This document shows positions 3,929 to 64,000 of a stretch of DNA of 64,000 nucleotides, in pieces. Source of the DNA: Vairimorpha necatrix (lineage: Eukaryota); contig CP142731.1 in the NCBI GenBank assembly GCA_036630325.1, positions 496,001-560,000 on the forward strand, written 5' to 3'. Below the pieces are notes generated by a model. It searched no databases. It saw nothing but the letters and a program-made list of their open reading frames with translations, and was not told where the DNA came from. The translations under genes and the position numbers were made by a program. How positions within the stretch are numbered: the first letter of the stretch is position 1; every line of letters begins with the position of its first letter.

Positions 3929-4044
3929 TGACTTTTATTAATGAATGTGAAACATCATCACATTAATCATTTAGTTTACAATATTTTCTCAAACTAAATG
4001 TCATTCATTTGTTTGTTTGTTTACAAACAATTAAATATTTAAAA

Positions 4045-7000: not shown

Positions 7001-9153
7001 AACTGCTGTTTGTCCTTCAAAAAGATTTTCCTTGATCTCCTTCCAGTTTGGATTGCAAGTCATAGTAATAAAAAGATCGGGCTTGCCGAAACTTCTTACA
7101 ATTGACATTGCATCATGATATCGCTCTCTCATATTTCTCGGAGATCCTTGGAAACTTGATGGTAAGATAACGGGCTTGGCAGAACTTTCTGATCCATTAT
7201 TTACATAATCTACTAAGCCTTTGTAAAGATCTACCCTCAACTTCTTCTGATTTAACTTTATAAAGTTTAAGTTATTTGCTTCGACTTGTAGATATGAATC
7301 TACAATCCATTGTTGAAATAACTTTCCTTCATAAAGTAAAGGATTGAACTTATCCTTTCTTACAGATATTTGAGCTACTTTATATTGTAGCAGACTTATC
7401 TTCTGTGCCTCTCCAAGATAAGACTCCAACCTCAAATTTGCATTCCATCCAGCTTCGCCATGTGGATAGAACAAAGTATATGCCATTGGATCTAAATGTG
7501 GACTTAAAATATCCAAATGTAAATTATCTGAATTAAGCCCCTTGCTATATACTTTAATGTCCCTTTCAAATGGGGGTTCTCCATTTGGATCAGTGAAAAT
7601 CATTGCGATTTCACTTGTAGAGGGAGCATTATACCTTCTCTGATCTCTTTCTAAATTCTTATTAAAGACCATAGAAATGTCTTTAACTTCCTTTCCCAAC
7701 TCCTTTTGCTCCTTTATTACTTCAGACATATTTTTATATGCATCGGAATATGGGTTTGCTGATCTTATGAATCCATCTAATTTGCTCATGATATTAATAT
7801 CACAGTTTCTGTTAGATAGATTCATCATTCTTTGAGCATTGGCCATATCACTATCTACTACATATAGTTGAGAATATTTCTTTGGTGCATTAGAGTCCAT
7901 ATTATTTACATTATAAGTGTTATGATACACTTGTCCATGTATTTTGAATACATATGGTCCATTGGATACAGTTTCTATTTGAGCACCAAGAGAAGCAAAA
8001 GAAAGAGCAGCATTGTAGGATCTAATATTTTCTCTGAAGTTTTTTGCATCTTTATCTTTTCCAATGAATAAATTCTTAATGTCATCTGGAAAGTCTCTTG
8101 TTATTTGTAATTTGACTTTCCCAAAATGACAGCAGCTTTTGTATAATCCATTGCTGCTTGCTTCTCCAGCAAAATGTAATGCACCACAAAAGCCACATTC
8201 TTCTTTCAAATCTCCACAATAATGTTCAGCATGGTTTCTGCTTGTGATTCTACATGCTACATCTAATCTTTCCGTAAGAGCTTCTATTATTCTGTTATCT
8301 TTTAAGTCATCTAATTCTTCTTTGTTGTTTATTGGATTGCTTGGTGTTTTGTTGTCGCTAGAGAAACTGAATATCGAATTCCTTTTTTTTGTTTCTCCAG
8401 CATTTGTTTTTTTATTTTTTTGATTATATACAGAGGTGTTGGCCTCATAGAAAATAACATTGTTATTTTCTGTATTACTACATATCTCCTGAGAGATAGT
8501 AACAGTTGCTTTGGGTTGTTTATTAAAATCGTTGTTTGCTTGATTTTTCATAAACATAATGAGGGGTGGAGAAAAAAATTTTATTTATAGTTTTTAAAAT
8601 TCCATTGGGGAAGAAGAAAACAAAAATGAGAATATAATTTGATAAATAGAATTGATATTAGTGTGAATCTTATTTAATTGAGTTTGTTAGTCAGTTGATA
8701 AATTCCTACTGTTTGTAAATCATCTTTCCAATGTTTGTTTCTTGTTTTGATTTTCCATTTCTGGTAAGAATTAAAAAGGAGCAAATGTGATTTTTAGAAG
8801 TTAAGTATATTATTGAACCGACATTGCAGTTTTAGAGTTAATTCAGAAACAAATATAAATTCAATTGAGTTAATTTCACACATTAGCAACCAATTTTTTC
8901 TACATTTTGTTTCATATTGTTTTTGTTTTCTTTTTCTAAAAGGAAGAAATTAAAAAGGAGAAAATCATATTTCTAAGCATTTCGAAAATGATTTATAAAT
9001 CATGTGTAAAGAATGGAAGTGGGTTAAAATTGTGTATAAAATACAATTTAAGTATTCAAAATCATTTTTGAATCAAAATTTGCAATTTTATTTTTTTACC
9101 ATTTTTTATATTTTAGGGGTAAAAAATTAAATAAAATTCTTTTATATATATGA
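4045..9153 (-). mobile_element. Autonomous Helitron 1
   Basis: Minus strand starts TC (9153) and ends CTAG (4045); subterminal hairpin acccgttc-tga-gaacgggt 4058-4076; RepHel ORF. Confidence 0.95.
4253..8557 (-). CDS. Helitron Rep/Pif1-helicase, 1434 aa
   Basis: EFQKRGLPHAHIL HUH motif, YIFKYIYKG, GPAGSGKT, LLIDEVSM, GGDFRQ, HGQLYVALSRV; N-terminal Cys cluster. Confidence 0.96.
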   Translation of the reverse strand: MFMKNQANNDFNKQPKATVTISQEICSNTENNNVIFYEANTSVYNQKNKKTNAGETKKRNSIFSFSSDNKTPSNPINNKEELDDLKDNRIIEALTERLDVACRITSRNHAEHYCGDLKEECGFCGALHFAGEASSNGLYKSCCHFGKVKLQITRDFPDDIKNLFIGKDKDAKNFRENIRSYNAALSFASLGAQIETVSNGPYVFKIHGQVYHNTYNVNNMDSNAPKKYSQLYVVDSDMANAQRMMNLSNRNCDINIMSKLDGFIRSANPYSDAYKNMSEVIKEQKELGKEVKDISMVFNKNLERDQRRYNAPSTSEIAMIFTDPNGEPPFERDIKVYSKGLNSDNLHLDILSPHLDPMAYTLFYPHGEAGWNANLRLESYLGEAQKISLLQYKVAQISVRKDKFNPLLYEGKLFQQWIVDSYLQVEANNLNFIKLNQKKLRVDLYKGLVDYVNNGSESSAKPVILPSSFQGSPRNMRERYHDAMSIVRSFGKPDLFITMTCNPNWKEIKENLFEGQTAVDRPDLVAKVFNIKLKKMMEEILSGRVFGEVVAHVYSIEFQKRGLPHAHILIMLKDKIRDVSVIDKYVSAEIPSPMENEMLHNCVTKHMIHGPCGLNNLTSPCMENGVCTKEYPKEHNTGTKINNDGYPEYRRIRGTEYSVKGYIVTNANVVPYNAYLLEKYNCHINVEVCTSIKSVKYIFKYIYKGFDCAEMRITDNNEIDHFVNSRYVSAPEATWRLMEYKMHGRSHKIHRLPVHLPQEQLITFEEGREEEAVRLSDLRQTPLLAYFKLNEVDEGAHQFSYSEIPYHYTYKKGEWIRRKNKYSKIITRLYSVSPTEKERFSLRVLLINVKGARSYDDLRTVNGIVYSSFAEAVEERGLLQDDKEWERALDEAVATESPAIIRVLFGYICAFNKPKNTKELFDKYLGDMSEDLDQNSRDEVISRLKDIINAHGWSLNALGLDEPINYIEKAKTISDNKKDLDQMISSLNAKQKEAFNLITDNIDKRGNLFFLDGPAGSGKTYLYNVLIEYLNKNKKSSIQMATTGIAADLLKDGRTMHSCMKLPVPSTETSVSRLKQNTPEAERIIKASLLLIDEVSMMSKHALNAIDEVLKRLCNNDDIFGGKTLLLGGDFRQTSTIVMKGTPNDIIENSLISSRLWAHVCVLKLETNMRSYNQLKFNKWLLDIGEGRTRDSKGCVEIPKEYLEEGDIVDSIFGTIKIEAGDDSLFDKIILTSKNEHANELNAKVLNLLNGSSRVYVSSDAIESEDIEEQLRFPLGFLNMQQPSGLPPHKLVLKIGAIVMLLRNIDPKNGLLNGTRLKIKGLKDNYILGEIITGRGRGTLAVIPKIDMMPIDTLLPFVLKRRQFPVVLSYAMTIHKAQGLSFDKVGVYLPEDVFSHGQLYVALSRVKKSENLRIKLGTNRGETKNVVLHELIGS

Positions 9154-10198: not shown

Positions 10199-13100
10199 CT
10201 AGTGTATACAGACCCGTTCTTAGAACGGGTTGTTTGTGTTTGCATTGGTACGTGTTTCTTTATATTACAATCTCAATTAAAAAAATGGCATAGTTTTTGT
10301 ACGCTCACGGCGCATTTTATCATCTTTTATCTCATCCTTATTGGAAGAAAAATGGCATAGTTCTTGTACGCTCACGGCGCATTTCTCCATCTCTTGGCTC
10401 TTATGGGCCAATTAGTTCACGTAGAACTACATTTTTGACATTGCCCCTGTTTCCCCCCAACTTGATCCTCAAGTTTTCACTCTTCTTCACTCTTGACAAA
10501 GCTACGTATAATTGACCATGAGAAAATACATCCTCAGGCAAATACACTCCCACTTTGTCAAAAGACTGTCCCTGTGCTTTATGTATTGTCATCGCATATG
10601 ACAATACCACAGGAAACTGTCTTCTTTTAAGTACAAACGGAAGAAGAGTGTCACTTGGCATCATATCAATCTTTGGTATTACGGCAAGGGTGCCCCTTCC
10701 CCTTCCTGTTATTATCTCACCTAAGATGTAATTATCTCTGAGACCTCTTATCTTCAATCTTGTCCCATTTAATAATCCATTCTTAGGATCAATATTGCGT
10801 AACAACATCACTATTGCCCCTATCTTCAATACTAACTTATGTGGAGGTAGTCCTGATGGCTGTTGCATGTTCAAGAACTCAAGAGGAAATCTCAGTTGTT
10901 CTTCGATATCCTCTGATTCTATAGCATCAGAACTCATATATACCCTCGAAGATCCATTAAGAAGGTTTAACACTTTGGCATTCAATTCATTTGCATGTTC
11001 ATTTTTGCTCGTTAAGATAATCTTATCAAACAAAGAATCATCACCTGCTTCAATTTTGATTGTATCAAAAATGCTATCGACTATGTCCCCTTCTTCAAGA
11101 TATTCTTTGGGTATCTCCACACATCCTTTACTATCTCTAGTACGCCCCTCACCTATATCTAACAACCATTTATTAAACTCCAATTGATTATAAGATCTCA
11201 TATTCGTTTCAAGCTTTAGTACACAGACATGTACCCAAAGTCTTGAACTAATTAATGAGTTCTCGATGATATCATTTGGAGTACCTTTCATTACAATGGT
11301 TGATGTCTGTCTAAAGTCACCACCCAACAATAGAGTTTTCCCTCCAAATATATCATCATTGTCACAGAGTCTTTTAAGCACCTCATCTATTGCGTTCAAT
11401 GCATGTTTTGACATCATCGAAACTTCATCTATTAGCAATAAAGAGGCCTTTATTATTCTCTCTGCTTCTGGAGTATTTTGCTTTAGTCTAGATACGCTGG
11501 TCTCTGTCAAAGGAACAGGAAGTTTCATACAACTATGCATTGTTCTTCCATCCTTTAATAAATCTGCAGCAATACCTGTGGTTGCCATCTGTATTGAAGA
11601 TTTTTTACTCTTACTTAGATACTCGATCAGGACATTATATAAATATGTCTTCCCCGATCCTGCTGGTCCATCTAAAAAGAATACATTGCCTCTTTTATCT
11701 ATATTATCTGTAATTATATTAAACGCATTTTTCTGGTTTTCATTCAAAGAGGATATCATCTGATCTAGATCTTGTTCATTATCAAAGATAGTTTTTGCCT
11801 TCACGATATAGTTAATCGGCTCATCTAAACCCAGAGCATTTAAGCTCCATCCATGAGCATTAACTATATCTTTTAATCTACTTAATATTTCGTCTCTACT
11901 ATTCTGATAAAGATCTTCAGACATATCTCCAAGATACTTCTCAAAGAGTTCTTTGGTATTTTTAGGCTTATTGAAAGCACAAATATATCCAAACAATGCT
12001 CTTATTATTGATGGGGACTCGGTTGATACAGCCTCATCCAAAGCCCTTTCCCATTCTTTATCATCTTGAAGAAGTCCTCTTTCTTCCACCGCTTCTGCAA
12101 AAGAACTGTAAACTACACCATTTACAGTTCTCAAATCCTCATATGACTTAGCCCCCTTTACATTGATCAATAGGACTCTGAGGCCAAATCTTTCCTTCTC
12201 TATTGGAGATACAGAATAAAGTCTAGTAATTATCTTACTATACTTATTCTTTCTCCTGATCCATTCTCCCCTTTTATATGTATAGTGATAGGGTATCTCA
12301 CTATACGAAAATTGATGTGCTCCTTCATCAACTTCATTCAATTTGAAGTAGGCTAAAAGAGGAGTCTGTCTAAGATCAGACAATCTAACAGCTTCCTCTT
12401 CTCTGCCTTCTTCGAAAGTGATCAATTGTTCTTGTGGAAGATGCACAGGAAGTCTATGGATCTTATGAGATCTTCCATGCATCTTGTATTCCATTAATCT
12501 CCAGGTAGCCTCTGGTGCTGAGACATATCTGGAATTCACAAAATGATCAATTTCATTATTGTCTGTTATTCTCATTTCAGCACAATCAAATCCTTTGTAA
12601 ATATACTTGAAAATATACTTTACTGACTTGATAGAAGTACAAACTTCTACATTGATATGACAGTTGTATTTTTCAAGCAAATAAGCATTATAGGGGACCA
12701 CGTTAGCATTAGTAACAATGTTGCCCCTTATATTGTACTCGACACCCCTTATTCTTCGGTACTCAGGATATCCGTCATTATTAATCTTTGTTTCGTTATT
12801 ATATTCCTTAGGATATTCCTTAGTGCAGACACCATTTTCCATGCATGGACTTGTCAAGTTATTTAGTCCACATGGGCCATGAATCATGTGTTTTGTTACA
12901 CAATTGTGTAACATCTCATTTTCCATAGGCGATGGTATCTCTGCACTTACGTATTTATCGATCTTATTTTCATCCCGAATCTTGTCCTTTAACATTATTA
13001 ATATGTGAGCATGAGGAAGTCCACGTTTCTGAAACTCAATAGAGTAGACATGGGCTACGACTTCCCCAAATACTCTCCCCGACAAAATCTCCTCCATCAT

Positions 13101-16100
13101 ACTTTTTAATTTCATGTTGAAGACCTTTGCTACCAAATCTGGTCTATCAACTGCTGTTTGTCCTTCAAAAAGATTTTCCTTGATCTCCTTCCAGTTTGGA
13201 TTGCAAGTCATAGTAATAAAAAGATCAGGCTTGCCGAAACTTCTTACAATTGACATTGCATCATGATATCTCTCTCTCATATTTCTCGGAGATCCTTGGA
13301 AACTTGATGGTAAGATCACGGGCTTGGCAGAACTTTCTGATCCATTATTTACATAATCTACTAAGCCTTTGTAAAGATCTACTCTCAACTTCTTCTGATT
13401 TAACTTTATGAAGTTTAAGTTATTTGCTTCAACTTGTAAATATGGTTAAGTTCTCGACTTACCCCCCCCCCCCCCCACCCCTAAAAAAAATAAAAAAGGG
13501 GAAAAAATAAAAAAAATAAAAAATTTGACCCATAATGAGAATTAAAGAATTTAGAAAACTCATCTATAAAAAAAATGAGTTAATGCAATTTTTAATTGCA
13601 AAAAACATTTTGAGGGTCCCTATGTGCAATAAATGCAATATACCAATGACTCAAAATCGGACAAACACTGAAAACTATCGTTGTTATTCAAGACGTGATG
13701 GTAAAAAATGTTCTAACAAAGGAACCATAATAACAAAGCGTTTTTAAGAACTCAAAATTGCCTATTGAGGATCTTTTAATATTGCTTTGCGAATGGGTAA
13801 AGGGTTCAAGTAATTTGGCCGCCACGTTAGAACTTGATATAGGTAAATGTACGGTATCAAGATGGTTTACGCGTTTTAATAACGCCGTGTACGTCTCTTA
13901 TTCAACATATATAAACAATCAAACGATTGGCGGCGTCGGTTGTATTGTTGAAATTGATGAAACTTTACTTGTAAAAAGTAAAAACCATGCGGGAAGGGTT
14001 CTTCAATATCAAGTATGGGCAGTTGGAGGCGTTGTGAGAGGGGATGCAAATTCTTTTTTCTTTGAGATCGTAGAAAATAGAACAAGAGCTACTCTTGTTG
14101 AATTAATTACAAGAAAAATTGCTCCGGGGACCACAATTGTGACAGATTGTTGGCGTGGATATAGTGATATTCAAACAATCTGTGTAGAATATGAGTATCT
14201 ACATTTGACTGTGAATCACAGCCAAAATTTTGTTGATAATATAACTGGTGCGCATACTCAGACTATAGAGGGAATGTGGTCGGTTATTAAAAGAGAACTA
14301 AGAAAAGGCGGAACTAGTCATGGTACTATTATGAATCTTGTAAGAAAGATTTACATTAACAGATTCAAATTAATATATCGTGAAAATCTATTAGATAAAA
14401 TGTTAGAATTTTTTCAAATAGGTAATTTTAGTATTGTAGCTTATGATATTATTCCTGAAATAGATTTTACAATTGTGGAATAATTTCTTTTGTTTTTTTT
14501 GGGGGTAAGGGGGGTTAAGTCGAGAATTAAACGTTTTTTTATTTTTTTTTATTTTTTCCCCTTTTTTTATTTTTTTTTATTTTTTTTTATTTTTTCCCCT
14601 TTTTTTATTTTTTTTAGGGGTGGGGGGTAAGTCGAGAACTTAACCGTAAATATGAATCTACAATCCATTGTTGAAATAACTTTCCTCCATAAAGTAAAGG
14701 ATTGAACTTATCTTTCCTTATAGATATCTGTGCTACTTTATATTGTAGTAAAGATATCTTCCGTGCCTTTCCTAGATAAGACTCCAATCTCAAATTTGCG
14801 TTCCATCCAGCTTCGCCATGTGGATAGAACAAAGTATATGTCATTGGATCTAAATGTGGACTTAAAATATCCAAGTGTAAATTATCTGAATTAAGACCCT
14901 TGCTATATACTTTGATGTCCCTTTCAAATGGTGGTTCTCCATTCGGATCAGTGAAAATCATTGCGATCTCAAAAGTAGAGGGAGCATTATACCTTCTCTG
15001 ATCTCTTTCTAAATTCTTATTAAAGACCATAGAAATGTCTTTAACTTCCTTTCCCAACTCCTTTTGCTCCTTAATTACTTCAGACATATTTTTGTATGCA
15101 TCAGAATATGGGTTTGCTGATCTTATGAATCCATCTAATTTGCTCATGATATTAATATCACAATTTCTGTTAGATAGATTCATCATTCTTTGAGCATTGG
15201 CCATATCACTATCCACTACATATAATTGGGCATATTTCTTTGGTGCATTAGAGTCCATATTATTTACATTATAAGTGTTATGATACACTTGTCCATGTAT
15301 CTTGAATACATATGGTCCATTGGATACAGTTTCTATTTGAGCACCAAGAGAAGCAAAAGAAAGAGCAGCATTGTAGGATCTAATATTTTCTTTAAAGTTC
15401 TTTGCATTTTTGTCTTTCCCAATAAATAAATTCTTAATGTCATCTGGGAAGTCTCTTGTTCTTTGTAAATTAACTTTCCCAAAATGACAGCAGCTTTTGT
15501 ATAATCCATTACTGCTTGCTTCTCCTGCAAAATGTAATGCACCACAAAAGCCACATTCTTCTTTCAGATCTCCACAATAATGTTCGGCATGGTTTCTAGT
15601 ACTGATTCTGCAAGCTACATCTAGAATCTCCGTCAAAGCATCCATCTTAGTGTTATTAATTCTCATGATTGTTTCTTCTGTTTCTTCTGTTTCTTGGGCT
15701 GTTTTGTTTTCGCTAGAGAAACTGAATATAAAATTCCTTTTTTTTGTTTCTCCAGCATTTGTTTTTTTATTTTTTGTGTTATGTACAGATGTATTGGCTT
15801 CATAGAAAACAACATTGTTGTTTTCAGTATTACTACTTATCTCCTGAGAGATAGTGTTAGTTGCTTTGGGTTGTTCACTTGAATCATTTTTTGCTTGATT
15901 TTTTGTAAACATAATGGGGGTAAAGAAAAAAATTTTATTTATAGTTTTTGAAATTCCATTTTGGGAAGGAAGAAAACAAAAAGAAGAATTTGATTTTTTA
16001 GAATTAATAATCTACATTAAATAATATTCTTTTCGAAATTGATTTACAATTTGTTATAAAACTCATTGATATTGTTATTAATGTTTATAATCAATTTTAT

Positions 16101-51380: not shown

Positions 51381-52627
51381 CACCAGGTTGATTCTGCCTG
51401 ACGTAGACGCTATTCCCTAAGATTAACCCATGCATGTTTTTGATATGGAAAAATGGACTGCTCAGTAATACTCACTTTATTTAATGTATTAAATTAGTAT
51501 AACTGCGTTAAAGTGTAGCATAAGACATATACAGTAAGAGTGAGACCTATCAGCTAGTTGTTAAGGTAATGGCTTAACAAGGCAATGACGGGTAACGGTA
51601 TTACTTTGTAATATTCCGGAGAAGGAGCCTGAGAGACGGCTACTAAGTCTAAGGATTGCAGCAGGGGCGAAACTTGACCTATGGATTTTATCTGAGGCAG
51701 TTATGGGAAGTAATATTCTATTGTTTCATATTGTAAAAGTATATGAGGTGATTAATTGGAGGGCAAATCAAGTGCCAGCAGCCGCGGTAATACTTGTTCC
51801 AAGAGTGTGTATGATGATTGATGCAGTTAAAAAGTCCGTAGTTTATATTTAAGAAGCAATATGAGGTGTACTGTATAGTTGGGAGAGAGATGAAATGTGA
51901 CGACCCTGACTGGACGAACAGAAGCGAAAGCTGTACACTTGTATGTATTTTTTGAACAAGGACGTAAGCTGGGAGGAGCGAAGATGATTAGATACCATTG
52001 TAGTTCCAGCAGTAAACTATGCCGACGATGTGATATGATATTAATTGTATTAGATGATAGAAATTTGAGTTTTTTGGCTCTGGGGATAGTATGATCGCAA
52101 GATTGAAAATTAAAGAAATTGACGGAAGAATACCACAAGGAGTGGATTGTGCGGCTTAATTTGACTCAACGCGAGGTAACTTACCAATATTTTATTATTC
52201 AGAGAAGATTTATAATCTGAGAATGATAATAGTGGTGCATGGCCGTTTTCAATGGATGCTGTGAAGTTTTGATTAATTTCAACAAGACGTGAGACCCTTT
52301 TATTAATAGACAGACACAATCAGTGTAGGAAGAAAAGGATTAAAACAGGTCCGTTATGCCCTCAGACATTTTGGGCTGCACGCGCAATACAATAGATATA
52401 TAATCTTTATGGGATAATATTTTGTAAGAGATATTTGAACTTGGAATTGCTAGTAAATTTTATTAAATAAGTAGAATTGAATGTGTCCCTGTTCTTTGTA
52501 CACACCGCCCGTCGCTATCTAAGATGATATGTGTTGTGAAATTAGTGAAAACTACTTGAACAATATGTATTAGATCTGATATAAGTCGTAACATGGTTGC
52601 TGTTGGAGAACCATTAGCAGGATCATA
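51381..52627 (+). rRNA. Microsporidian SSU (16S-like) rRNA
   Basis: caccaggttgattctgcctgac start, gtgccagcagccgcggtaa, gtacacaccgcccgtc, aagtcgtaac, ggatca; ~1.25 kb. Confidence 0.98.
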
Positions 52628-52664
52628 ATAAGTTAAATTTAAATTAATTTTAATTATTAAATTT

Positions 52665-54258
52665 ACCCACACATGGGATCAATAGGATACCATAACGATG
52701 AAGGTCGTAATAGAATACGAAAGTATATTATTTACCTAATTAATATATTTATAATGTATTGATAACCCTTTGAACTTAAGCATATCATTAAAAGGAGGAA
52801 AAGAAACTAACTAGGATTTCTTTAGTAGCAGCGAGTGAACAAGAAATAACCCTCCATTGTAATCCTTAATTGGAGTTGTAAATGGTTTATTCTATTAATT
52901 ATATTTATAGAGAATATTATATTCGTTATTAATAGAATAGAATAATGTACTTGAGTAGAGCTGCTTGGTAGTGCAGTTTGAATAAAGGTAGAATGAAATA
53001 TCTAAGGTTAAATATAATGGTATACCGATAGAAAATAAGTACTGCGAAGGAACTTGTGAAAATGTGTGGAGTTTAGCCTTATTTTTAAGGACCCGTCTTG
53101 AAACACGGACCAAGGAGATTATAATTATAGCAAGATAAAAATTAAATTTTTTAATCTTTATTAACTTGATTAGTTATAATTATAAGACCCGAAACACAGT
53201 GAACTATACATGTTCTGGTTGAAGATAAGCAACAGTTTATTGGAAGACCATAATCATTCTGACGTGCAAATCGATGATTTAAGATGTGTATAGTGGCGAA
53301 AGACCAATCGAACTGTGTGGTAGCTGGTTCACAGCGAAATGTCTCTCAGGACAGCAGTTATTATTATATAGGACATAGATGTAGGACACTGTTATAGTTT
53401 TTTAACTATGAGAAATCTTTAATTCTATGGAATTATATAAATTAAATTTATATAATGAATCTATTGTATAACTAGTGGGCACATGATTGTAAGAATGATG
53501 TGCAAAAAGGGATGAACCTTATGAAACATTAAATATTCTAAATAGTAGATATTATACCATAAATATGATGAATACATTGAGACAGTAGGGCGGTTGTTAT
53601 GGAAGTAGAAATCCGCTAAGAAACGTGTTACAACGTACCTACCGAATGTATTATTGTATAAAATGGAAGAAGATTACTACTTTTATGAGATGTTTCTAAT
53701 AAATATTTAGGTAGCTGTGCAATTTGTTTGTATTGAAGTATATATGTGAGTATATATAGAAGAAACAAATGAGCCGATCTTGGAGGCAGTAACAATATAT
53801 TTGTATAGATATAGACTAGGGTTTTCAATTATTATTGAAGTGAATCGGTGTTATTTATAAAAACAAAAAAGATTAATAATTCTTTATTAAATTATTATAA
53901 GGTAACTTGATAATGACAGTATATTTCAATAAATTTAAGATAAATGAATTAAATTTTATTTTAACTATGGATTGTCATGATAAGAAATAGTTAATTATAT
54001 ATACTTGATAAAAATAAAATAATTTTAACCGTACCTATACCGCATCAGGTGTCTTTGTATCATAACAAATATTTTAAATTAAAGTAAGTAAGGGAATTCG
54101 GCAAATTAGATCTGTAACTTTGGGATAAAGATTGGCTCTAGCATGCTAGAACTTTTACTATGTAAGGAATCTGACTGTTTATTAAAAACATAGCTTTTTG
54201 TATTTACAAGAAGTGAATTCTGCCCAGTGCATTTATTGTTAAAGTTGTGTAAGCGAAT

Positions 54259-54311
<53 letters not shown>

Positions 54312-54410
54312 TTAATTGGTGACGCGCATGAATGGAGCAACGAGATTCCTACTGTCCCTACTTACAATTTTGTGAAACCACGAGACAAGGGAACGGGCTT
54401 GTTATTTATC

Positions 54411-54442
<32 letters not shown>

Positions 54443-54877
54443 TTAGTATGTTTTAATAAATATTCGGTATATTGTAGAGAGGTGGGAGAAGTATTGTGAA
54501 ACCACTAGTATGTTTGAATATTTATTTATTAGAATATATGGGGAGTTTGGCTGGGGCGGTACAGCTGTTAAAAAGTAACACAGCTGTCCTAAGGTAGATG
54601 AATGATGGATGGTAACCATCAGTTTATTATAAGGGAATAAATCTGCTTTACTTTATGCATATGACTGTATTTAGTAGGGAAACCTTGGCCTAGCGATCCC
54701 AATTACATTCATTATGTATTGGGTGATTGAAAAGTTACCACAGGGATAACTGGCTTGTAGCAGGCAAGCGATCATAGCGACTCTGCTTTTTGATTCTTCG
54801 ATGTCGTCTCTTCTGATCATCGTAGTGTATATGTTACGAAGTGTTGGATTGTTCACCCGGTAATGAGGAACGTGAGA

Positions 54878-54919
<42 letters not shown>

Positions 54920-55145
54920 TAAGTATTTTTGAGTGAACTTTGATAGTACGAGAGGAACTCTAAGTGATGACCACTGGTAGTGCGATTAACTATTAAGTTA
55001 TGTTGCTTAGCTACGTCGTTTCGATTAAGGCTGAAAGCCTCTTAAGCCTGAAGCGTAGCTCAAAGATACATTTAGGAGAATACTACTCTTTTAAGCAGAA
55101 CTGTAAGAATGAAGGTGTATGCCGACATTTTGAGGTTACTGCTTT
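52665..55145 (+). rRNA. LSU rRNA with fused 5.8S, after a ~37-nt AT-rich ITS
   Basis: gacccgtcttgaaacacggaccaagg, taaggtagccaaatgcctcgtc, sarcin-ricin agtacgagaggaac, terminal helix aagcagaac...gttactgctt; ends approximate. Confidence 0.96.
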
Positions 55146-55330
55146 TTTGTATGTATAGTAGGTGTTGTATACAAATAAGAGAGCGTATACGTCGCGGAGG
55201 GTGGGACCGATGTTTTTTAACTAGGTGCAGATCTCTAAGTCTTACCAACCTTCGGCTGCTGGTTGGTAAGTAGGGCCAGCTATACTCTAGGGGTGGGAGA
55301 CCCATTGCTGGTGAGAAGGACACCGTTAAC

Positions 55331-55399
55331 ACCCTCCATAAGAGAGCGTCCACGTCGCGGAGGGTGGGACCGATGTTTTTTAACTAGGTGCAGATCTCT
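55331..55399 (+). ncRNA. HDV-like self-cleaving ribozyme
   Basis: P1 ACCCUCC/GGAGGGU, P2 AGAGA/UCUCU, P3 GCG/CGC, L3 UCCACGU, P1.1 CC/GG, P4 ACC..GGU, J4/2 GCAGA. Confidence 0.9.
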
Positions 55400-55832
55400 A
55401 AGTCTTACCAACCTTCGGCTGCTGGTTGGTAAGTAGGGTCAGCTATACTCTAGGGGTGGGAGACCCATTGCTGGTGAGAAGGACACCGTTAACTTTCGAG
55501 TAATTCTTCATATTTTTAACCTGGGAGAGGTTGGGCATGATACTGAAGCTGTATTGTTCCGCTGAACTGAGTCGTGTTCTTAAATGGTGTATTGAACCAG
55601 GCGTTGTGTTTTCGTCAGGTCCGCGAAATATGTAGTCAGAGATGACTAAGGATCTGTTACCTACGGGAACAAATTTTTCTCCTACAAGCGAGGCCGTTGA
55701 GGTATGCTGGCGTGTAATCGCAATTATTGATGTTTTTCTGGTTGGTGGAGTTTTTGGTGGCTTGGTGGCTTTTCTTCGTTTTGCTGATTCTGTCTTTTTA
55801 CAATAAACAATTTTAATTTTATTTTTATTTTT
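55331..55832 (+). mobile_element. Ribozyme-headed SINE-like element, full length
   Basis: 15-bp TSD aaggacaccgttaac (55316-55330, 55833-55847); AATAAA then T-rich tail. Confidence 0.88.
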
Positions 55833-56007
55833 AAGGACACCGTTAACTTTCGAGTAATTCTTCATATTTTTAACCTGGGAGAGGTTGGGCATGATACTGA
55901 AGCTGTATTGTTCCGCTGAACTGAGTCGTGTTCTTAAATGGTGTATTGAACCAGGCGTTGTGTTTTCGTCAGGTCCGCGAAATATGTAGTCAGAGATGAC
56001 TAAGGAT

Positions 56008-56076
56008 ACCCTCCATAAGAGAGCGTCCACGTCGCGGAGGGTGGGACCGATGTTTTTTAACTAGGTGCAGATCTCT
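56008..56076 (+). ncRNA. HDV-like ribozyme, copy 2
   Basis: Same sequence as 55331-55399. Confidence 0.9.
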
Positions 56077-56505
56077 AAGTCTTACCAACCTTCGGCTGCT
56101 GGTTGGTAAGTAGGGTCAGCTATACTCTAGGGGTGGGAGACCCATTGCTGGTGAGAAGAACACCGTTAACTTCCGAGTAATTCTTCATATTTTTTAACCT
56201 GGGAGAGGTTGGGCATGATACTGAAGCTGTATTGTTCCGCTGAACTGAGTCGTGTTCTTAAATGGTGTATTGAACCAGGCGTTGTGTTTTCGTCAGGTCC
56301 GCGAAATATGTAGTCAGAGATGACTAAGGATCTGTTACCTACGGGAACAAATTTTTCTCCTACAAGCGAGGCCGTTGAGGTATGCTGGCGTGTAATCGCA
56401 ATTATTGATGTTTTTCTGGTTGGTGGAGTTTTTGGTGGCTTGGTGGCTTTTCTTCGTTTTGCTGATTCTGTCTTTTTTACAATAAACAATTTTATTTTAT
56501 TTTTT
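56008..56505 (+). mobile_element. Ribozyme-headed SINE-like element, full length
   Basis: 16-bp TSD agagatgactaaggat (55992-56007, 56506-56521). Confidence 0.88.
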
Positions 56506-56756
56506 AGAGATGACTAAGGATCTGTTACCTACGGGAACAAATTTTTCTCCTACAAGCGAGGCCGTTGAGGTATGCTGGCGTGTAATCGCAATTATTGATG
56601 TTTTTCTGGTTGGTGGAGTTTTTGGTGGCTTGGTGGCTTTTCTTCGTTTTGCTGATTCTGTCTGTCAGGGGACAAGCCCAGGTGCATACTGAGACTTGCC
56701 CTGCCCAAGGAATGAATTGTGTTTTGACAGGGCTTTGGAGAGACCAACACATTAAT

Positions 56757-56825
56757 GCCCACCACAAGAGAGCGTCCACGTCGCGGAGGGTGGGACCGAT
56801 GTTTTTTAACTAGGTGCAGATCTCT
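56757..56825 (+). ncRNA. HDV-like ribozyme variant (G1.U wobble, A-A mismatch in P1)
   Basis: P1 GCCCACC/GGAGGGU; core otherwise conserved; heads the SINE copy ending at 57252. Confidence 0.8.
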
Positions 56826-57252
56826 AAGTCTTACCAACCTTCGGCTGCTGGTTGGTAAGTAGGGTCAGCTATACTCTAGGGGTGGGAGACCCATTGCTGG
56901 TGAGAAGAACGCCGTTAACTTTCGAGTAATTCTTAATATTTTTAACCTGGGAGAGGTTGGGCATGATACTGAAGCTGTATTGTTCCGCTGAACTGAGTCG
57001 TGTTCTTAAATGGTGTATTGAACCAGGCGTTGTGTTTTCGTCAGGTCCGCGAAATATGTAGTCAGAAATGACTAAGGATCTGTTACCTACGGGAACAAAT
57101 TTTTCTCCTACAAGCGAGGCCGTTGAGGTATGCTGGCGTGTAATCGCAATTATTGATGTTTTTCTGGTTGGTGGAGTTTTTGGTGGCTTGGTGGCTTTTC
57201 TTCGTTTTGCTGATTCTGTCTTTTTTTACAATAAACAATTTTAATTTTTTTT

Positions 57253-57839
57253 AGTGGTAAAACCACAAATAAAACCAACTTTAATAGATTTAAATCACTT
57301 AAAGTAGAAACCGGCGGCAATATAAAAGTGCCCAAAAATACTATTTATGAAGTTTTAAACAGAAAATTTATCATTCCTAAAAAAGATATGAAGGGTAAAG
57401 CGCAACAAACCAGGAGCAAGCTCAGTAGAGCAAAAAGTGACCACTTTGGTGGTCCAAACAACAATTTAGATACAGAAATGTATTTAAAACAACAAACTAA
57501 GCATGTATATGCTAATAAAAGTTTCCCAAGTGTTACTTTCAAAAATGATGGAGAAATGAAATATTTTCTCAAGAAAATCAAAATTCTCTCAGAAAGAATT
57601 AATAAAAACGATATTTTTGACACGTCAAAAAAAGAAAATAACAAAGATCTTCTTGATATTAAAAGATACATATCTAGCACTACTGAATTAGTATTGATTC
57701 AGCAGACATATTTGGAGCTCTTCCATGATAAGCTAGAAAAACAAAATATCAAATTAAAAAATTTGAAAAAAAATAATCTGATGGATGACAGTAATCAAAT
57801 TACAGAATCAACAAAAAATAAAATTGAGATGATGATAGA
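57253..57839 (+). pseudogene. Older LINE ORF1 pieces (internal 57253-57387; N-terminal 57388-57839, continuing at 63613)
   Basis: Paralogous to ~58760-58895 and ~57842-58295. Confidence 0.85.
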
Positions 57840-57841
57840 AA

Positions 57842-59515
57842 ATGAAGGGTAAAGCAAGAGAAAGCAGGAGCGAGCTCAGTAGAGCAAAAAGTGACCACTT
57901 TGGTGGTCCAAACAACAATTTAGATATAGAAATGTATTTAAAACAACAAACTAAGCATGTATATGCTAATAAAAGTTTCCCAAGTGTTACTTTCAAAAAT
58001 GATGGAGAAATGAAATATTTTCTCAAGAAAATAAAAATTCTCTCGGAAAGAATTAATAAAAATGATATTTTTGACACATCAAAAAAAGAAAACAATAAAG
58101 ATCTTAGTGATCTTAAAAGATACATAGCTAGCACTACTGAATTATTACTGATTCAGCAGACATATCTGGAGCTCTTCCATGACAAGCTAGAAAAACAAAA
58201 TATCAAATTAAAAAATTTGATTAAAAATAATCTGATGGATGACAGTAATCAATTTACAGAATCAACAAAAAATAAAATTGAGATGATGATTGAGAATCAC
58301 TCAAAAGAATGTGTAGAACAAAAGGATAATAACTCCGATGTTCCAAATGATACCAGTAGCGAAACCCTTCAGTTAGCTACTGGAAACAATGATATTTCTA
58401 AATTAGAAATCATAAATGAAGATGTTTTAATTAATGTCAAAAATATCGTGTCTGCTGTCAAAGTAGAAGAAGAAGATCGATTGTCAGATGATGGCAAAAG
58501 AAAATGTATAGGTGTCTCAAATGCGTCTACAAATATTATAATTAATAAAAATATTAAAACAAAAGATGTTAAGCTAGACTTAGCTTTCATTAATAAAAAA
58601 GCAGTAGTTAGACATCTGTCAACTATCTCTGCTATTATAGCTGGTAAAAGAAAAGCTCCTAAGAATGGAGTCAAGCTTTTCCATATAAACGAAGACGGAT
58701 GGACATCTGTCAAACACACATTCAAGCCTAAAGTCCAGATAGACTTGAAGAAAAACAGAAGTGGTAAAACCACAGATAAAACCAACTTTAATAGATTTAA
58801 ATCACTTAAAGTAGAAACTAGTGGCAATGTAAAAGTGCCCAAAAAGATTAATCATGAAGCTGTAAAGAGAAAGAATATCATTCCTAAAAAAGATCATGAA
58901 AAGGAAAGATTACAAAATCAGAGAATAAATTTTACAAAAAAAACGAAGGACAGAAAAAATGAGAAATGTCAACAAAAAAGAGTTCCAGTTTTACCAAAGA
59001 AAAACTGGGCCAAAGAGCTATCTGAAGAAGCTCTTATGAAAATTATTAAGGATGGTAGAATTATTTCCAAGTGTAAGTTTAGGATAGCTCTTGTGTCTGG
59101 ACTCGGATTGAAAGGGAAACCTCAATCTAGAGACGCTTGGGCAGCCTTAGCTGATGTGGAAAATAAAGATATACCACTTATAAAACAATTTAAAGATTCG
59201 GAAGTAGTACTTCTGATGATTAGAGAACACGTGGGCCAAAAGGTACTAAGCAAAATTAAAGAAAAGTTCGGAGGTTCTAATATCTGCGATGAAGTTAATT
59301 TCTTCACCGACTTTATGTCTTTAACAAAAACAACTGTTCTAGGAGAGCTGCAAAGACTCTCTGGAACGCATAAAAATTTTGTACCGCTTGTAAAAGCATG
59401 TTGGTACATAACTAAAGAATTAAATAAAGAAAACCCAAACCATGGTTCTTTCATTATTTTAGAAAATATGATGGGTGAGCCTGCCCGAGAATCTAAGGAC
59501 TTTAACAATGAATAA
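57842..59515 (+). CDS. LINE ORF1, 557 aa, Lys-rich, no recognisable zinc knuckle
   Basis: Long ORF directly before ORF2, with diverged copies nearby. Confidence 0.8.
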   Translation: MKGKARESRSELSRAKSDHFGGPNNNLDIEMYLKQQTKHVYANKSFPSVTFKNDGEMKYFLKKIKILSERINKNDIFDTSKKENNKDLSDLKRYIASTTELLLIQQTYLELFHDKLEKQNIKLKNLIKNNLMDDSNQFTESTKNKIEMMIENHSKECVEQKDNNSDVPNDTSSETLQLATGNNDISKLEIINEDVLINVKNIVSAVKVEEEDRLSDDGKRKCIGVSNASTNIIINKNIKTKDVKLDLAFINKKAVVRHLSTISAIIAGKRKAPKNGVKLFHINEDGWTSVKHTFKPKVQIDLKKNRSGKTTDKTNFNRFKSLKVETSGNVKVPKKINHEAVKRKNIIPKKDHEKERLQNQRINFTKKTKDRKNEKCQQKRVPVLPKKNWAKELSEEALMKIIKDGRIISKCKFRIALVSGLGLKGKPQSRDAWAALADVENKDIPLIKQFKDSEVVLLMIREHVGQKVLSKIKEKFGGSNICDEVNFFTDFMSLTKTTVLGELQRLSGTHKNFVPLVKACWYITKELNKENPNHGSFIILENMMGEPARESKDFNNE

Positions 59516-62500
59516 AGTATCTTTGTTAAAGTCCTGTTATTATAGGAAATTATTTTCCTATAACAAGAGTGATATTTTCAAATCTCTAAATAAAAAAACG
59601 CATAATCCAATTGGATTTACTCAGATTAAAAATACTTTCCAAACGACAACGAGATTGAATAGTCTCAAATATTTTTCTATTAGAAAGAATATGTGGTGGA
59701 AGAAAGTACAAGAACAATATTGTATTGTCAAGATACAAAGAATTCCTTATGGAGTGAAAGATCTCCTCAAAGACTTATGTAAGAAGAACTCTCTTTTGGA
59801 GAATTCCATCATTACAGCAAGAAAGTATAGACGAAGAGACACGTCTTTTACAAAAATAATAGTTGAAAAACTATACGCAAATTTATTGATTAAGACAGTT
59901 AAAGCTAAAGGCTTTAAAGTTTTAAATGATAATAGAAAAGAACTAGAGAAATCTAGTAAAGTAAATAAAAAGACCAAAGAGAACATAAAACTCTTAAGTC
60001 TAAACATTAATCATCTCTCTAATAAGAGAGAAGAACTTGAGTTTCTTCTTAAGAAGGAGAAACCAGAAATTATGTGTTTACAAGAAACTTGGAGACAATC
60101 TACAAGACCTTTAAAACTTGAAAAATACACTACAGTTGAAACACCTAGTGGTGGAAAAAATAAACCAGGATTAATAACTCTGGTTAGAAATAATGGAGCG
60201 ATCAGATGTTCCAAAAAAGGAACCGACTCAAACATTCTGCAAACTGTAGTTGAGTTTAGTTCAGCAGGCAAATGGATTAAGTATTTAGTCTTAAATGTCT
60301 ACATACCACAAACAAGGATCTCAAAAGGGAGACCTTGGCTAGATTATTTTCTCTTTTAGAAAAAGAGAATTTCAGAAATAACTATAGTGAGATCATAGTG
60401 ATGGGAGATATGAATATGCAGAGTTCTAGTCTCAAGAAAAAATTAAATGTAGTTGGTTTGCCAGTTACAATAAAATATAACAGCAACGATGGTACAAGGA
60501 TCCTCAAAGATGGTAAAAGATCTAAGAGGAAAATTGATACCATCTTTCGACTAAAAAGTAATGATAATGAGAAGATCATTATATCCAAGTCTTGGGTATT
60601 AAGTGATCACTTAGTGCTCAAAAGAAGTATTAAACTTGCCGTTGATAAGATCTCCGATCAACTAGTTTATGATAAGAAAATGCTGGAAAATCCAAAAGTG
60701 ATTAAAAAGCTAAAAAAGAAGTTGTGTAATCAACAATTAAACATGAATAATCTCCCCGAGATTATTCAGAAAGTTTGTACATCTTTGAAGATTTACAAAA
60801 AGAGAAGAGTCCATACTGGACTTACAATGAGATGGAGATATTTAAAAGTCTTCAAAGAAAAACGTCTAGCAGCAAGAGCTGTTATGAAAAATTACAATGA
60901 AATCAACTCAATTAGATTCGAATATCTCAAAAAGAGAGTAGACGAAACTAAAAAGTTGATTCGCAAAGATAGATCGAAACTTTGGGCTTTAAGAGGAATA
61001 AAGCTCTTTAAAAGTAACAGATACCGAGAATTCTGGCAATGGCTGAAAAATAGAAGTGTTTCCATTCGTTTGGATCAAGTGGCTCTAATTGACCACAATA
61101 AGCTTCTTCAGACTTGCCGAGCAAAGAAGCTAGAAATAGCAAATAATTTTTACGCTGATTTGGCGTCAGAGAATGATATAGATGTCAATGTCTATGATAA
61201 AGTAGATCTTGTTGATCTTCCCCCAGAGATAACAGATGAAGAATTTCTATCCGCACTGAAGAAATGTGGAAATAACAAAGCTGCCGGTCCTGATGAGATT
61301 CCAACCGAGCTATACAAATACTTACTGACTAGAGCAGTAGAAGATAAATTCTTTAAATTCATGCTACATGAATTTAATAAATATATTTGTGGAAATAGTA
61401 CTCCTGAATATTGGAGCATGGCAAACATGATTTGCCTTCACAAAAAAGGAGATGAGACAGATCTGAATAATTATAGGGGAATCTCCTTAATTAACACAAT
61501 TAGTAAGATCTATCTCAAGATAATAAATGACAGGTTAACTCAATTTGTCGAAGAACAAGATATACTCTCTAGATACCAAGCAGGATTCCGAGCAGGTGAA
61601 GAGTGTATGAATCAGATTACATCTCTACTAGAAATAGTGAGAAGAAGAGAATTCAGAGGCTTGAACACAATAATGTGTTTCATTGACTTTGAAAAAGCTT
61701 ATGATAATGTAAGTCATGACTTATTATTTGAAAAGCTTACAAAACTTAATATCCCATTGTATTTAATCAATACAATAAAGGATATTTATAAATATACCAC
61801 CATGCGTGTGAAAATTGGTGGTGACACGTCAAGTGGTTATAGCTACAGAAAAGGAGTGAGACAAGGGTGCCCTTGTTCTCCAATGCTGTTCAATATATTC
61901 ATCAATGATATTTTTGACGGCATAGAAGGAGTTTTGATCCCAAGATCAAATACGAGAGTTCCGGGACTGATGTTCGCAGATGATATTGTTGTCTTCGGAA
62001 ACAACATTGATGATCTTAATAATAAGATCAATAGAATTTCAAAGTGGGCAGTTAATAACAGAATGAAGATTAACTGCACAAAAAGCGGAGTATTAGAATG
62101 GAATGCTCATTCTAACATACAAGAATTCCGAAGTTTATATTCTCTCAGTACAGACTTTGGTGTGATTGAAGAAGTCACTGAATACAGATATCTAGGTGTC
62201 TTAATTAAAAGAAACACGCTAGAAGAACACTTGGTTAAAGACGCAGCAATGCGTGGCAAGAAAGCCTTGGACGCCTTGATGCCCAAGTTGATGAATAGCA
62301 GCATCAATCTCTACTTCAAGGCGATCTTAATAAAATGTGTACTAGTACCCACACTAATGTATGGCAGTGAATTGTGGGGAATGTCAAGTACAAGAGCAGG
62401 TAAGATTAACAGGATCTTAAGAAAATCTATCAGAATGATATTCAAAAGAGTATTAGTTCCACTAGATAGAGTAATGGACGAGTTCAGTATCGAACGAATT

Positions 62501-63199
62501 CATATACAAGCAGCTTTGAGTAGATTCAGAGCATACAACAAGTGGAAACACAATAAGACAATCATATCGGATATAATCTCAATTAATCCGAAAGAAAGAA
62601 AAACTACCTGGTGTTCAAGAACACAAAGATGGTTAAAACGATTTGTTGGCAACGAATACGAATCAAGTGATAGTAGATTTATCACTACAAAAATAATTGA
62701 TGTACTAAGAAGTCGAAGAACTCTAAATACTTCTTTAGCTGCATCAATAGCAAACCAATATGACATAAGAAATTCACAAATAAAATATGTCATGAACAAA
62801 ATAAACAATAGAAAAATTAGAACATATACTAGATTGAGATGTAATCTAGTAAAGTGGTCCTCAGCAATAGCATATTCAAAAAGAATACCAATGAGTTATA
62901 GAAACAAATGCTTTTTGTGTGATGGACCACAAGAAAATTTAGAACACTTTCTGTTGGAGTGCGTCTGTTTTACTGACATTAGAACATCTTTTGAAAATAA
63001 ACTGCCTCTACTGACTTGTTCAAAAACAAATATCCGAGAAAAAACCAAACAACTCCTTGGTAATAAAATCGGACTAAAAAATAACCCAGATAAGATAAAA
63101 GAACTTTGTTGGACTATAGAGTTCTTAGATAGAATGGTTGTCTCTAGAAGAATTATATTTGAAAAGAAACTTAAAGAGATAACAAAACAGGATAATTAA
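59508..63199 (+). CDS. LINE ORF2: APE endonuclease, RT, CCHC; one -1 frameshift at ~60325
   Basis: SLNINHL, CLQETW, MGDMN, SDH; YRGISL, FIDFEKAYD, GVRQGC..SP.LF, FADD, YRYLG; CFLC..HFLLEC. Confidence 0.92.
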
Positions 63200-63612
63200 T
63201 ATGAATAATTAAAAACAATAAAATCTAGAAATGGAAGAAAGAGATGTTATTTTACTAACAAGAAAACTTATATTTAATTATATTTGACCTGGGAGAGGTC
63301 GGGCATGATACTGATGCTGTATTGTTCCGCTGAACTGAGTCGTGTTCTTAAATGGTGTATTGAGCCAGGCGTTTTCGTTTTTCATCAGACTCATGAAAGT
63401 GGGTCTCTAGTCATATTATGACTAAGGATGTATCCTATGGGAACAAACTTTTCTCCTACAAGCGAGGCCGTTAAGGTATGCTGGCGTGTAAACGCACTTA
63501 TTGATGATTTTTTCTTTATTAGTGGAGTTTTTGGTGGCTTGGAGGCTTTTCTTCGTTTTGCTGATTCTGTCTTTTTTTTACAATAAACAATTTTATTTTA
63601 TTTTTTTTTTTT

Positions 63613-64000
63613 GAGATGATGATAGAGAATCACTCAAAAGAATATGTAGAACTAAAGGATAAACCCTCCGATGTTCCAAATGATACCAGTAGCGAAACCC
63701 TTCAGTTAGCTACTGGAAACAATGATATTTCTAAATTAGAAATCATCAATGAAGATGTTTTAATTAATGTCAAAAATCTCCCATCTGCTGTCATAAATCT
63801 CGACACTGCTGTCAAAGTAGAAGAACAAGATAAATTGTCAGAAGATGGCAAAAGAAAATGTATAGATGTTTCAAAGGCATCTACAGATATTATAATTAAT
63901 AAAAATATTAAACCAAAAGATGGTAAGCTAGATATAGCTTCCATTAACAAAAAAGCAGTAGTTAGACATCTGTCAACTATCTCTGCTATTATAGCTGGTA
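63613..64000 (+). pseudogene. Continuation of the interrupted older LINE ORF1
   Basis: Paralogous to ~58280 onward; runs off the window. Confidence 0.85.

Follow-up and report, generated by a model that had tools for sequence, protein, structure and literature searches.

A probable HDV-like ribozyme at the head of a short non-LTR retroposon beside the rDNA of a Vairimorpha-like microsporidian

The window, meaning the whole 64-kb stretch of DNA that was analysed, is microsporidian and derives from a Vairimorpha-like host. An Rfam search of the window placed a microsporidian SSU rRNA at 51381-52628 and the start of an LSU rRNA gene at 52743 on the plus strand, with the archaeal LSU model putting the 3' end of that gene at about 55166 (52743-55166). 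The eukaryotic LSU model instead runs on to 55309, and because the archaeal model stops at about 55166 the final ~140 nt of this longer prediction (55167-55309) are not rRNA. The same segment is the 5' portion of a repeat, copy A below, and automated annotation with the eukaryotic model would misplace the LSU 3' end here by entering that copy. Repeats make up about 50% of the Vairimorpha necatrix genome according to its genome paper, and 18-20 scattered rDNA loci have been reported for Vairimorpha-type microsporidia. Further transposons lie at the opposite end of the window (119-3928, 4253-8557 and 10401-13388): a Ty3/gypsy-type polyprotein with protease, reverse transcriptase, RNase H and integrase, and two Helitron-like helicase ORFs (Helitron_like_N and PIF1), the second of which has a shorter N-terminus.

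When positions 55331-55813 were compared with the window by BLAST, four copies of a repeat of about 500 nt were found, all on the plus strand and all within 2.1 kb 3' of the LSU gene. Copy B (55331-55832) is full length at 502 nt, ends in a T-rich tail and is flanked by a 15-bp target-site duplication (TSD; AAGGACACCGTTAAC) whose left (55316-55330) and right (55833-55847) copies are identical. Copy C (56008-56505) has 498 nt, is 98.8% identical to copy B and lies between identical 16-bp TSDs (AGAGATGACTAAGGAT) at 55992-56007 and 56506-56521. The duplications are exact (15/15 and 16/16), and since the base just outside each TSD differs between the two sides, the boundaries of both inserts are unambiguous; each begins at the A of ACCCUCC. 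Copy D (56757-57253) has 497 nt, is 97.8% identical to copy B, and was recognized by alignment, by a relaxed form of the structural descriptor introduced below and by contig ends and a step in contig depth. The length of the T-rich tail differs among B, C and D.

Copy A is the host of the other insertions. It spans 55175-56663 in three pieces (55175-55330, 55848-56007 and 56522-56663) split by B and C; the LSU 3' end lies about 8 nt before its start, and it has neither the first 7 nt of the element nor a T-rich tail. When B and C are cut out together with one TSD copy apiece, the result is an uninterrupted copy A that differs from B only at the missing 5' end, at a pair of adjacent bases and at one further base, and that is colinear with the uninterrupted copy D (in that alignment the excision of C falls 3 nt off). 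The preliminary description of this DNA had stated that both TSD-flanked copies, at 55331 and 56008, start at exactly the same nucleotide with unrelated sequence upstream. The shared start holds to the base; the upstream flanks are in fact two different internal positions of copy A, so that B and C are nested insertions. A spacer of 93 nt that is relatively GC-rich (56664-56756) separates the truncated 3' end of copy A from copy D, and a second copy of it was not found in the window, where the longest shared run is about 12 nt. A single ORF in the element region has 120 aa or more; with 195 aa and on the minus strand (55443-56030), it crosses the junctions of the nested copies B, A and C and is therefore taken to be spurious.

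To the right of the repeat cluster lies a non-LTR retrotransposon (LINE; 57842-63613, plus strand), which is presumed to be the autonomous partner of the short element. Its ORF1 (57842-59515) has no Pfam match. ORF2 lies in two overlapping frames, an endonuclease part (59475-60359), which can be aligned to the endonuclease region of P0001, a relative of 1,237 aa, and a reverse-transcriptase part (60335-63199) with an RVT_1 match at E 6e-39, for which the closest named relative is a Vairimorpha necatrix protein with 86% identity over 38% of the query. The Exo_endo_phos match of the LINE itself is weak, and the assignment of an AP-type endonuclease leans on P0001, which carries PF03372 in this region. 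Identity is 58-59% for P0001 and a second relative, P0002. ORF2 is broken at 60315-60359, where P0001 is continuous (approximately residues 277-284), by one frameshift in the endonuclease domain, and this LINE copy is for that reason probably defective. The window contains no LINE 5' UTR and no LINE 5' end with a ribozyme. Fragments of the LINE pile up at 57254-57843 and at 63611-64000: 57254-57400 repeats the ORF1-internal segment 58761-58908 at 87%, 57388-57843 repeats the start of ORF1 (57842-58297) at 94%, and immediately behind the T tail at 63613 comes a 5'-truncated LINE equivalent to 58278-58646. Two of these fragment junctions begin at the ORF1 ATG.

The short element combines a 5' module of about 180 nt with a LINE 3' module; over its 3' ~320 nt it shares 86% identity with the 3' UTR of this LINE (63279-63613), and both elements end in T-rich tails. 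The shared module is presumed to be the one recognized by the reverse transcriptase. Between the first 69 nt and the 3' module lie about 110 nt without a match elsewhere in the window, and an Rfam and tRNA search of the element body found no tRNA or known RNA family apart from the weak ribozyme match described below. Given the 3' end shared with a LINE, the variable T-rich tails and this lack of a tRNA or Rfam origin, the element is best classed as a SINE/SIDE-like non-autonomous retroposon, and it has the TSDs, the 5'-truncated copies and the absence of coding capacity that go with that class. R2 clade elements are marked by a restriction-like endonuclease and insert at a specific site of the 28S gene. 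Neither trait was found here: the N-terminus of the partner ORF2 is AP-endonuclease-like (PF03372 region), and the copies sit 3' of the LSU gene, not within it.

The first 69 nt of copy B (55331-55399) and the identical first 69 nt of copy C (56008-56076), both on the plus strand, can be folded as an HDV-like ribozyme. The preliminary description had proposed that a full nested double pseudoknot could be paired here, and every pairing that it described is present. In copy B, P1 joins 55331-55337 to 55359-55365 in 7 Watson-Crick pairs, J1/2 is AUA (55338-55340), P2 has 5 pairs (55341-55345 with 55395-55399) and P3 has 3 (55346-55348 with 55356-55358). L3 reads UCCACGU (55349-55355), P1.1 consists of the 2 pairs C55350-G55367 and C55351-G55366, and P4 is formed by 55369-55371 with 55387-55389 and by 55375-55377 with 55382-55384 around a UUUU loop. 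All pairs are Watson-Crick, P1 crosses P2, and P1.1 crosses P3. The five helices follow the canonical order (P1-P2-P3-L3-P3'-P1'-P1.1'-P4-J4/2-P2'), and the nested double pseudoknot that they make is the architecture of HDV-like ribozymes as described in PMC3774820. P1, P3 and P4 were also returned independently by a nested minimum-free-energy prediction (ViennaRNA). P2 is limited to 5 pairs, and P4, besides being short, is rich in A and U. The first pair of P1 is A-U; in HDV this pair is a G-U wobble. The predicted cut lies immediately 5' of A55331.

The letters expected at an HDV-like active site are also in place. J4/2 (55390-55394) reads GCAGA, as had been noted from the start, and fits the pattern C-N-R-A with C55391 as the candidate catalytic cytosine, a base that is kept in copies A to D. 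According to PMC3774820, a U and a G of L3 form a conserved reverse wobble in HDV-like ribozymes, and the corresponding letters here are U55349 and G55354, alongside the two P1.1 cytosines C55350 and C55351. The resemblance of P3 and L3 to the mammalian CPEB3 ribozyme that had been pointed out earlier is borne out by the cmscan alignment, in which the segment from AGCGU to CGCGG agrees with the Rfam consensus at 15 of 16 letters.

Two of the four copies depart from this fold. Copy A lacks the 5' strand of P1, which is the 7 nt missing from its start, and its L3 reads UAUACGU in place of UCCACGU, so that both P1.1 cytosines are gone (CC to AU). Copy D starts with GCCCACCAC and has three changes relative to B in its first 9 nt, where its differences are concentrated: a G-U first pair, an A-A mismatch at the fifth pair of P1, and one change in J1/2. 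No compensatory change occurs among the four copies, which are 97.6-98.8% alike, and there is thus no usable covariation, since B and C are identical in the ribozyme and the changes in A and D only break pairs.

The preliminary description had suggested an Infernal search against the HDV-like Rfam models as a check; the search yielded only sub-threshold matches to CPEB3_ribozyme (RF00622), at 16.0 and 14.0 bits with E 0.57 and 2.7 (the former over copy C) against a gathering score of 35 bits, and the candidate is not counted as a member of the CPEB3 family. In a 110-nt search the E value of this model was 0.19, and in the cmscan alignment the first P1 letter of the model falls on A55331. Rfam includes further HDV-like families, and none of its families other than CPEB3_ribozyme matched the candidate at E up to 10. 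The scope of such models is narrow, and pseudoknots are not represented in them. Folding energy was discarded as evidence, as the 69-mer has -19.0 kcal/mol with a z score of -0.29 and 62 of 200 shuffles were equally stable.

A structural descriptor was modelled on the published architecture of HDV-like ribozymes. It called for a P1 of 7 pairs, a P2 of at least 4 pairs abutting P3, a P3 of 3 pairs, an L3 of 7-8 nt, a P1.1 formed with L3 positions 2-3, and C-N-R-A immediately before the 3' strand of P2. On both strands of the real window (128 kb) it matched exactly twice, at copies B and C, which count as one event because they are copies of each other. Dinucleotide-shuffled windows gave 27 sites in 223 (5 in 68 and 22 in 155), a rate of 0.12 per 128 kb or about 1e-6 per position; with L3 further restricted to a U in position 1 and C-G in positions 5-6, none of the 155 shuffles matched. 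With 0.12 sites expected per 128 kb, a lone match somewhere in a window is only mildly significant, but chance becomes very unlikely when a match that occurs at about 1e-6 per position sits on the TSD-defined first base of a retroposon. Relaxing the descriptor to allow one P1 mismatch and a P2 of at least 3 pairs added only copy D to the matches in the real window (B, C and D); this version was rejected as evidence because it does not discriminate, with 242 sites in 68 shuffles, or 3.6 per window.

Two wider searches were negative. An exact 28-mer from the ribozyme core had 0 matches in viral contigs and 0 in genome contigs, and the descriptor had 0 matches on both strands of 80 metagenome loci with related LINEs (508,702 bases). 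The latter result is uninformative, as the LINEs at these loci are too distant (protein identity of at most 41% over the best segment, mostly 21-32%) and many of the contigs probably lack 5' ends.

Contigs from four public runs that were aligned to copy D and its unique flanks (56664-57400) extend the picture beyond the window. The pieces numbered 32 in run X1, 860 in run X2 and 0 in the DNA run X3; the RNA run X17 also gave 0 pieces, which says nothing about expression. For X2, the summed word depth is about 1,400-4,200 over the left flank, 72,000-207,000 within the element and 150-800 over the right flank; word depth is not a copy number, and the step coincides with the element edges. The left-flank depth exceeds that of the LINE ORF1 fragment on the right, and the spacer at 56664-56756 may on this account be multi-copy. 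Nested insertions are visible in the contigs as well. A joint in X1 after element position 57061 leads into a new 5' end that reads ACCCTCCA, and one in X2 after 56956 leads into a new 5' end of A followed by CCC, while two less clean starts in X2 read AACCT and CCCTT before 56762/56763. At least six joints have 5'-truncated copies right behind a T tail, with truncation points at 56811 (twice), 56813, 56823, 56867 and 57054. The contigs show the expected signs of target-primed reverse transcription in a high-copy family with a preferred full-length start.

Variants of the ribozyme region are likewise represented. Among the 12 of 48 loose ends listed, one X1 contig matches the spacer only up to 56756. 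Another flank precedes an X1 contig sequence that, starting with its second base, has the letters of copy D (CCCACCAC), from which it appears that an RNA with the imperfect P1 had the same 5' end. Mismatches in P1 are described in PMC3774820 as uncommon and as abolishing cleavage in vitro in some cases, and the D-type variant fits either a 5' end that is set by something other than cleavage or a ribozyme that tolerates the mismatch. A diverged X2 contig keeps both P4 sub-helices (ACC..GGU and GUU..AAC) and GCA-A-A, including the J4/2 cytosine (it reads GCAAA). The four positions at which it differs lie in P4 and J4/2 and, in a comparison by eye, are all predicted to be unpaired, which speaks slightly for the fold.

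Taken together, these observations suggest, with a probability of roughly 80%, that 55331-55399 and 56008-56076 are HDV-like self-cleaving ribozymes heading a non-autonomous non-LTR retroposon of about 500 nt in a Vairimorpha-like microsporidian. The 69-nt sequence is probably a genuine HDV-like ribozyme; that it cleaves, that it is co-transcribed and that it uses the enzymes of the LINE are steps that we infer. The element would be transcribed inside a longer RNA, with read-through from the LSU rRNA as a plausible source, since the predicted cut site of copy B lies about 165 nt 3' of the LSU end on the same strand. The double pseudoknot would then fold, and C55391 would catalyse a cut just 5' of A55331 that sheds the upstream host sequence. 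The 3' ~320 nt, which copy the LINE 3' UTR, would recruit the endonuclease and reverse transcriptase of that LINE, and target-primed reverse transcription up to the cleaved RNA end would give inserts that start at A1, with 15-16-bp TSDs and a T-rich tail of variable length. The preliminary description had read the boundary as a genomic footprint of cleavage in vivo before reverse transcription, and the present data agree with that reading on all points that sequence can address: an HDV-like fold with its active-site letters forms the first 69 nt of a TSD-flanked retroposon, and the independent insertions B and C, along with contig junctions from two runs, begin at the first nucleotide of P1.

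The strongest of the alternatives, though an unlikely one, is that the element owes its 5' end to the start of transcription at an internal or upstream promoter and that the HDV-like pairing is coincidental or serves another, non-cleaving purpose. Since a fixed 5' end is a property of every retrocopied RNA, the identical starts of B and C do not by themselves need a ribozyme, and the P1-mismatched D-type variant that ends at the same position, the sub-threshold Rfam scores and the missing thermodynamic signal also speak for this view. In L1Tc the 77-nt module is described as both promoter and ribozyme (PMC3383444), and a promoter role may thus exist here too. Against this explanation, a pattern expected by chance at about 1e-6 per position falls exactly on the TSD-defined first base, the letters of L3 and J4/2 are the conserved ones of the active site, and no tRNA-like sequence or known RNA family was found in the element to supply a Pol III promoter.

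Somewhat less probable again is that the ribozyme is a relic of a functional HDV-like one, perhaps that of a full-length LINE, which is now inactive while its copies spread by other means. In favour of this, copy A has lost P1 and the P1.1 cytosines, copy D has a P1 mismatch, and the sole LINE copy in the window has a frameshifted ORF2 and no 5' UTR. Yet B and C are 98.8% identical, their ribozymes are intact and identical and their TSDs are exact, which implies recent activity of an RNA that starts at A1, and the contigs show more copies with an intact ACCCTCC start.

A further idea, held to be about as improbable as a relic, concerns copy A and would make it something other than an ordinary insertion, with its start so close to the LSU end, its first 7 nt missing and its ribozyme dead. 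On one reading it would be a chimeric rRNA-element retrocopy, produced when the reverse transcriptase, at the 5' end of the element RNA, switched to an rRNA precursor; jumps of the R2 reverse transcriptase to U12 and tRNA have been reported, and such chimeric retrocopies could disperse whole rDNA units over the chromosomes of Vairimorpha-type microsporidia. In a milder version the rDNA-flanking copies would serve as master copies, with Pol I read-through providing their transcripts and the ribozyme setting these free, a life style like that of R2 without site-specific insertion. A search for a TSD around the rDNA unit plus copy A found no indicative shared 10-mer, and the retrocopy idea thus has no support here. 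The motif GTATAC occurs twice in this region, once right after the LSU end (55167-55172) and once in the former L3 of copy A (55186-55191), at the site of GTCCAC in B, C and D. Two of the three substitutions of copy A beyond its unalignable first 7 nt hit the P1.1 cytosines and create this second GTATAC (GUAUAC in the RNA), which might stem from gene conversion, or from repair or templating where the 5' junction was made.

The weakest alternative, in which there is no mobile element and the copies are rDNA spacer sub-repeats from unequal recombination with repeat junctions posing as TSDs, draws on the common strand of all copies, their confinement to 2.1 kb 3' of the LSU gene and their appearance as simple direct repeats in a repeat search, but it was rejected for the following reasons: taking out B and C together with one TSD apiece regenerates a continuous copy A; the copies have tails of unequal length; a LINE 3' UTR 7 kb away matches the 3' part; and in the contigs the depth changes stepwise at the edges of the element, other flanks occur, and 5'-truncated copies follow T tails.

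The reading of the element as a ribozyme-headed retroposon has close parallels. It is established for insects, trypanosomatids and other eukaryotes that HDV-like ribozymes cut retrotransposon RNAs free from co-transcripts. The R2 SIDEs of Drosophila join a 5' ribozyme to a LINE 3' end (Eickbush & Eickbush 2012, PMC3414825), and like these and the R2/R1 hybrid SIDEs the present element is short and non-coding, with a 5' HDV-like ribozyme and a non-LTR 3' end. It also resembles R2 SIDEs in lying in or beside the rDNA and, as we infer for the element here, in being spread by LINE machinery; the 14-bp TSDs of the R2/R1 hybrid SIDEs (PMC3414825) are similar to the 15-16 bp seen here. In contrast to R2 SIDEs, the partner has an endonuclease part of the AP type and not of the R2 type, no fixed 28S site is used, the two insertions having taken different internal sites of another copy, and the element has a T-rich tail and about 110 nt without other match in the window between ribozyme and 3' module.

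In trypanosomatids, L1Tc, NARTc and SIDER (Pr77/L1TcRz, ~77 nt) likewise carry a 5' HDV-like ribozyme in autonomous and non-autonomous non-LTR elements (PMC4035085, PMC3185411, PMC3383444), with the ribozymes of NARTc and SIDER reported to cut 5' of nucleotide +1 (PMC4035085). The L1Tc/NARTc ribozyme is described as freeing the element RNA from co-transcripts, and its first nucleotide is C1, so that a G is not required at this position. Their module differs in doubling as an internal promoter and in being common to the LINE and the short element, whereas the window here holds no LINE 5' end with a ribozyme. Some trypanosomatid candidates with 'adequate folding' were reported as inactive in vitro (PMC4035085). 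The mammalian CPEB3 ribozyme (RF00622) shares with the candidate its topology, a 7-nt L3 and the near-consensus P3/L3/P3' (15/16), but it differs in P1, P2 and P4 and is intronic and single-copy, where the present one heads a retroposon. The likeness is best taken as convergence towards an active site under constraint, an argument already made for R2 ribozymes (PMC3774820), and not as family membership.

The strategy is therefore a known one (R2, R2 SIDEs, L1Tc/NARTc, SIDER), and it is the host group that is new. Searches of open-access full texts found no report of an HDV-like ribozyme or a comparable element in Microsporidia; the words 'ribozyme' and 'SINE' are both absent from the V. necatrix genome paper, and a review lists only MITEs in the rDNA of Nosema bombycis. 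If active, the element would be a compact natural HDV-like ribozyme of 69 nt from a highly reduced parasite, and it would explain how an abundant short element without a promoter is expressed in a genome that is about half repeats. The nested insertions with their exact TSDs would provide a very clean natural footprint of the presumed cleavage. Directly 3' of the candidate ribozyme, at 55404-55433, a perfect 10-bp hairpin (CTTACCAACC ... GGTTGGTAAG) was recognized by eye; the same hairpin is found in copies A, C and D, and it could affect the folding of the ribozyme or bind a protein.
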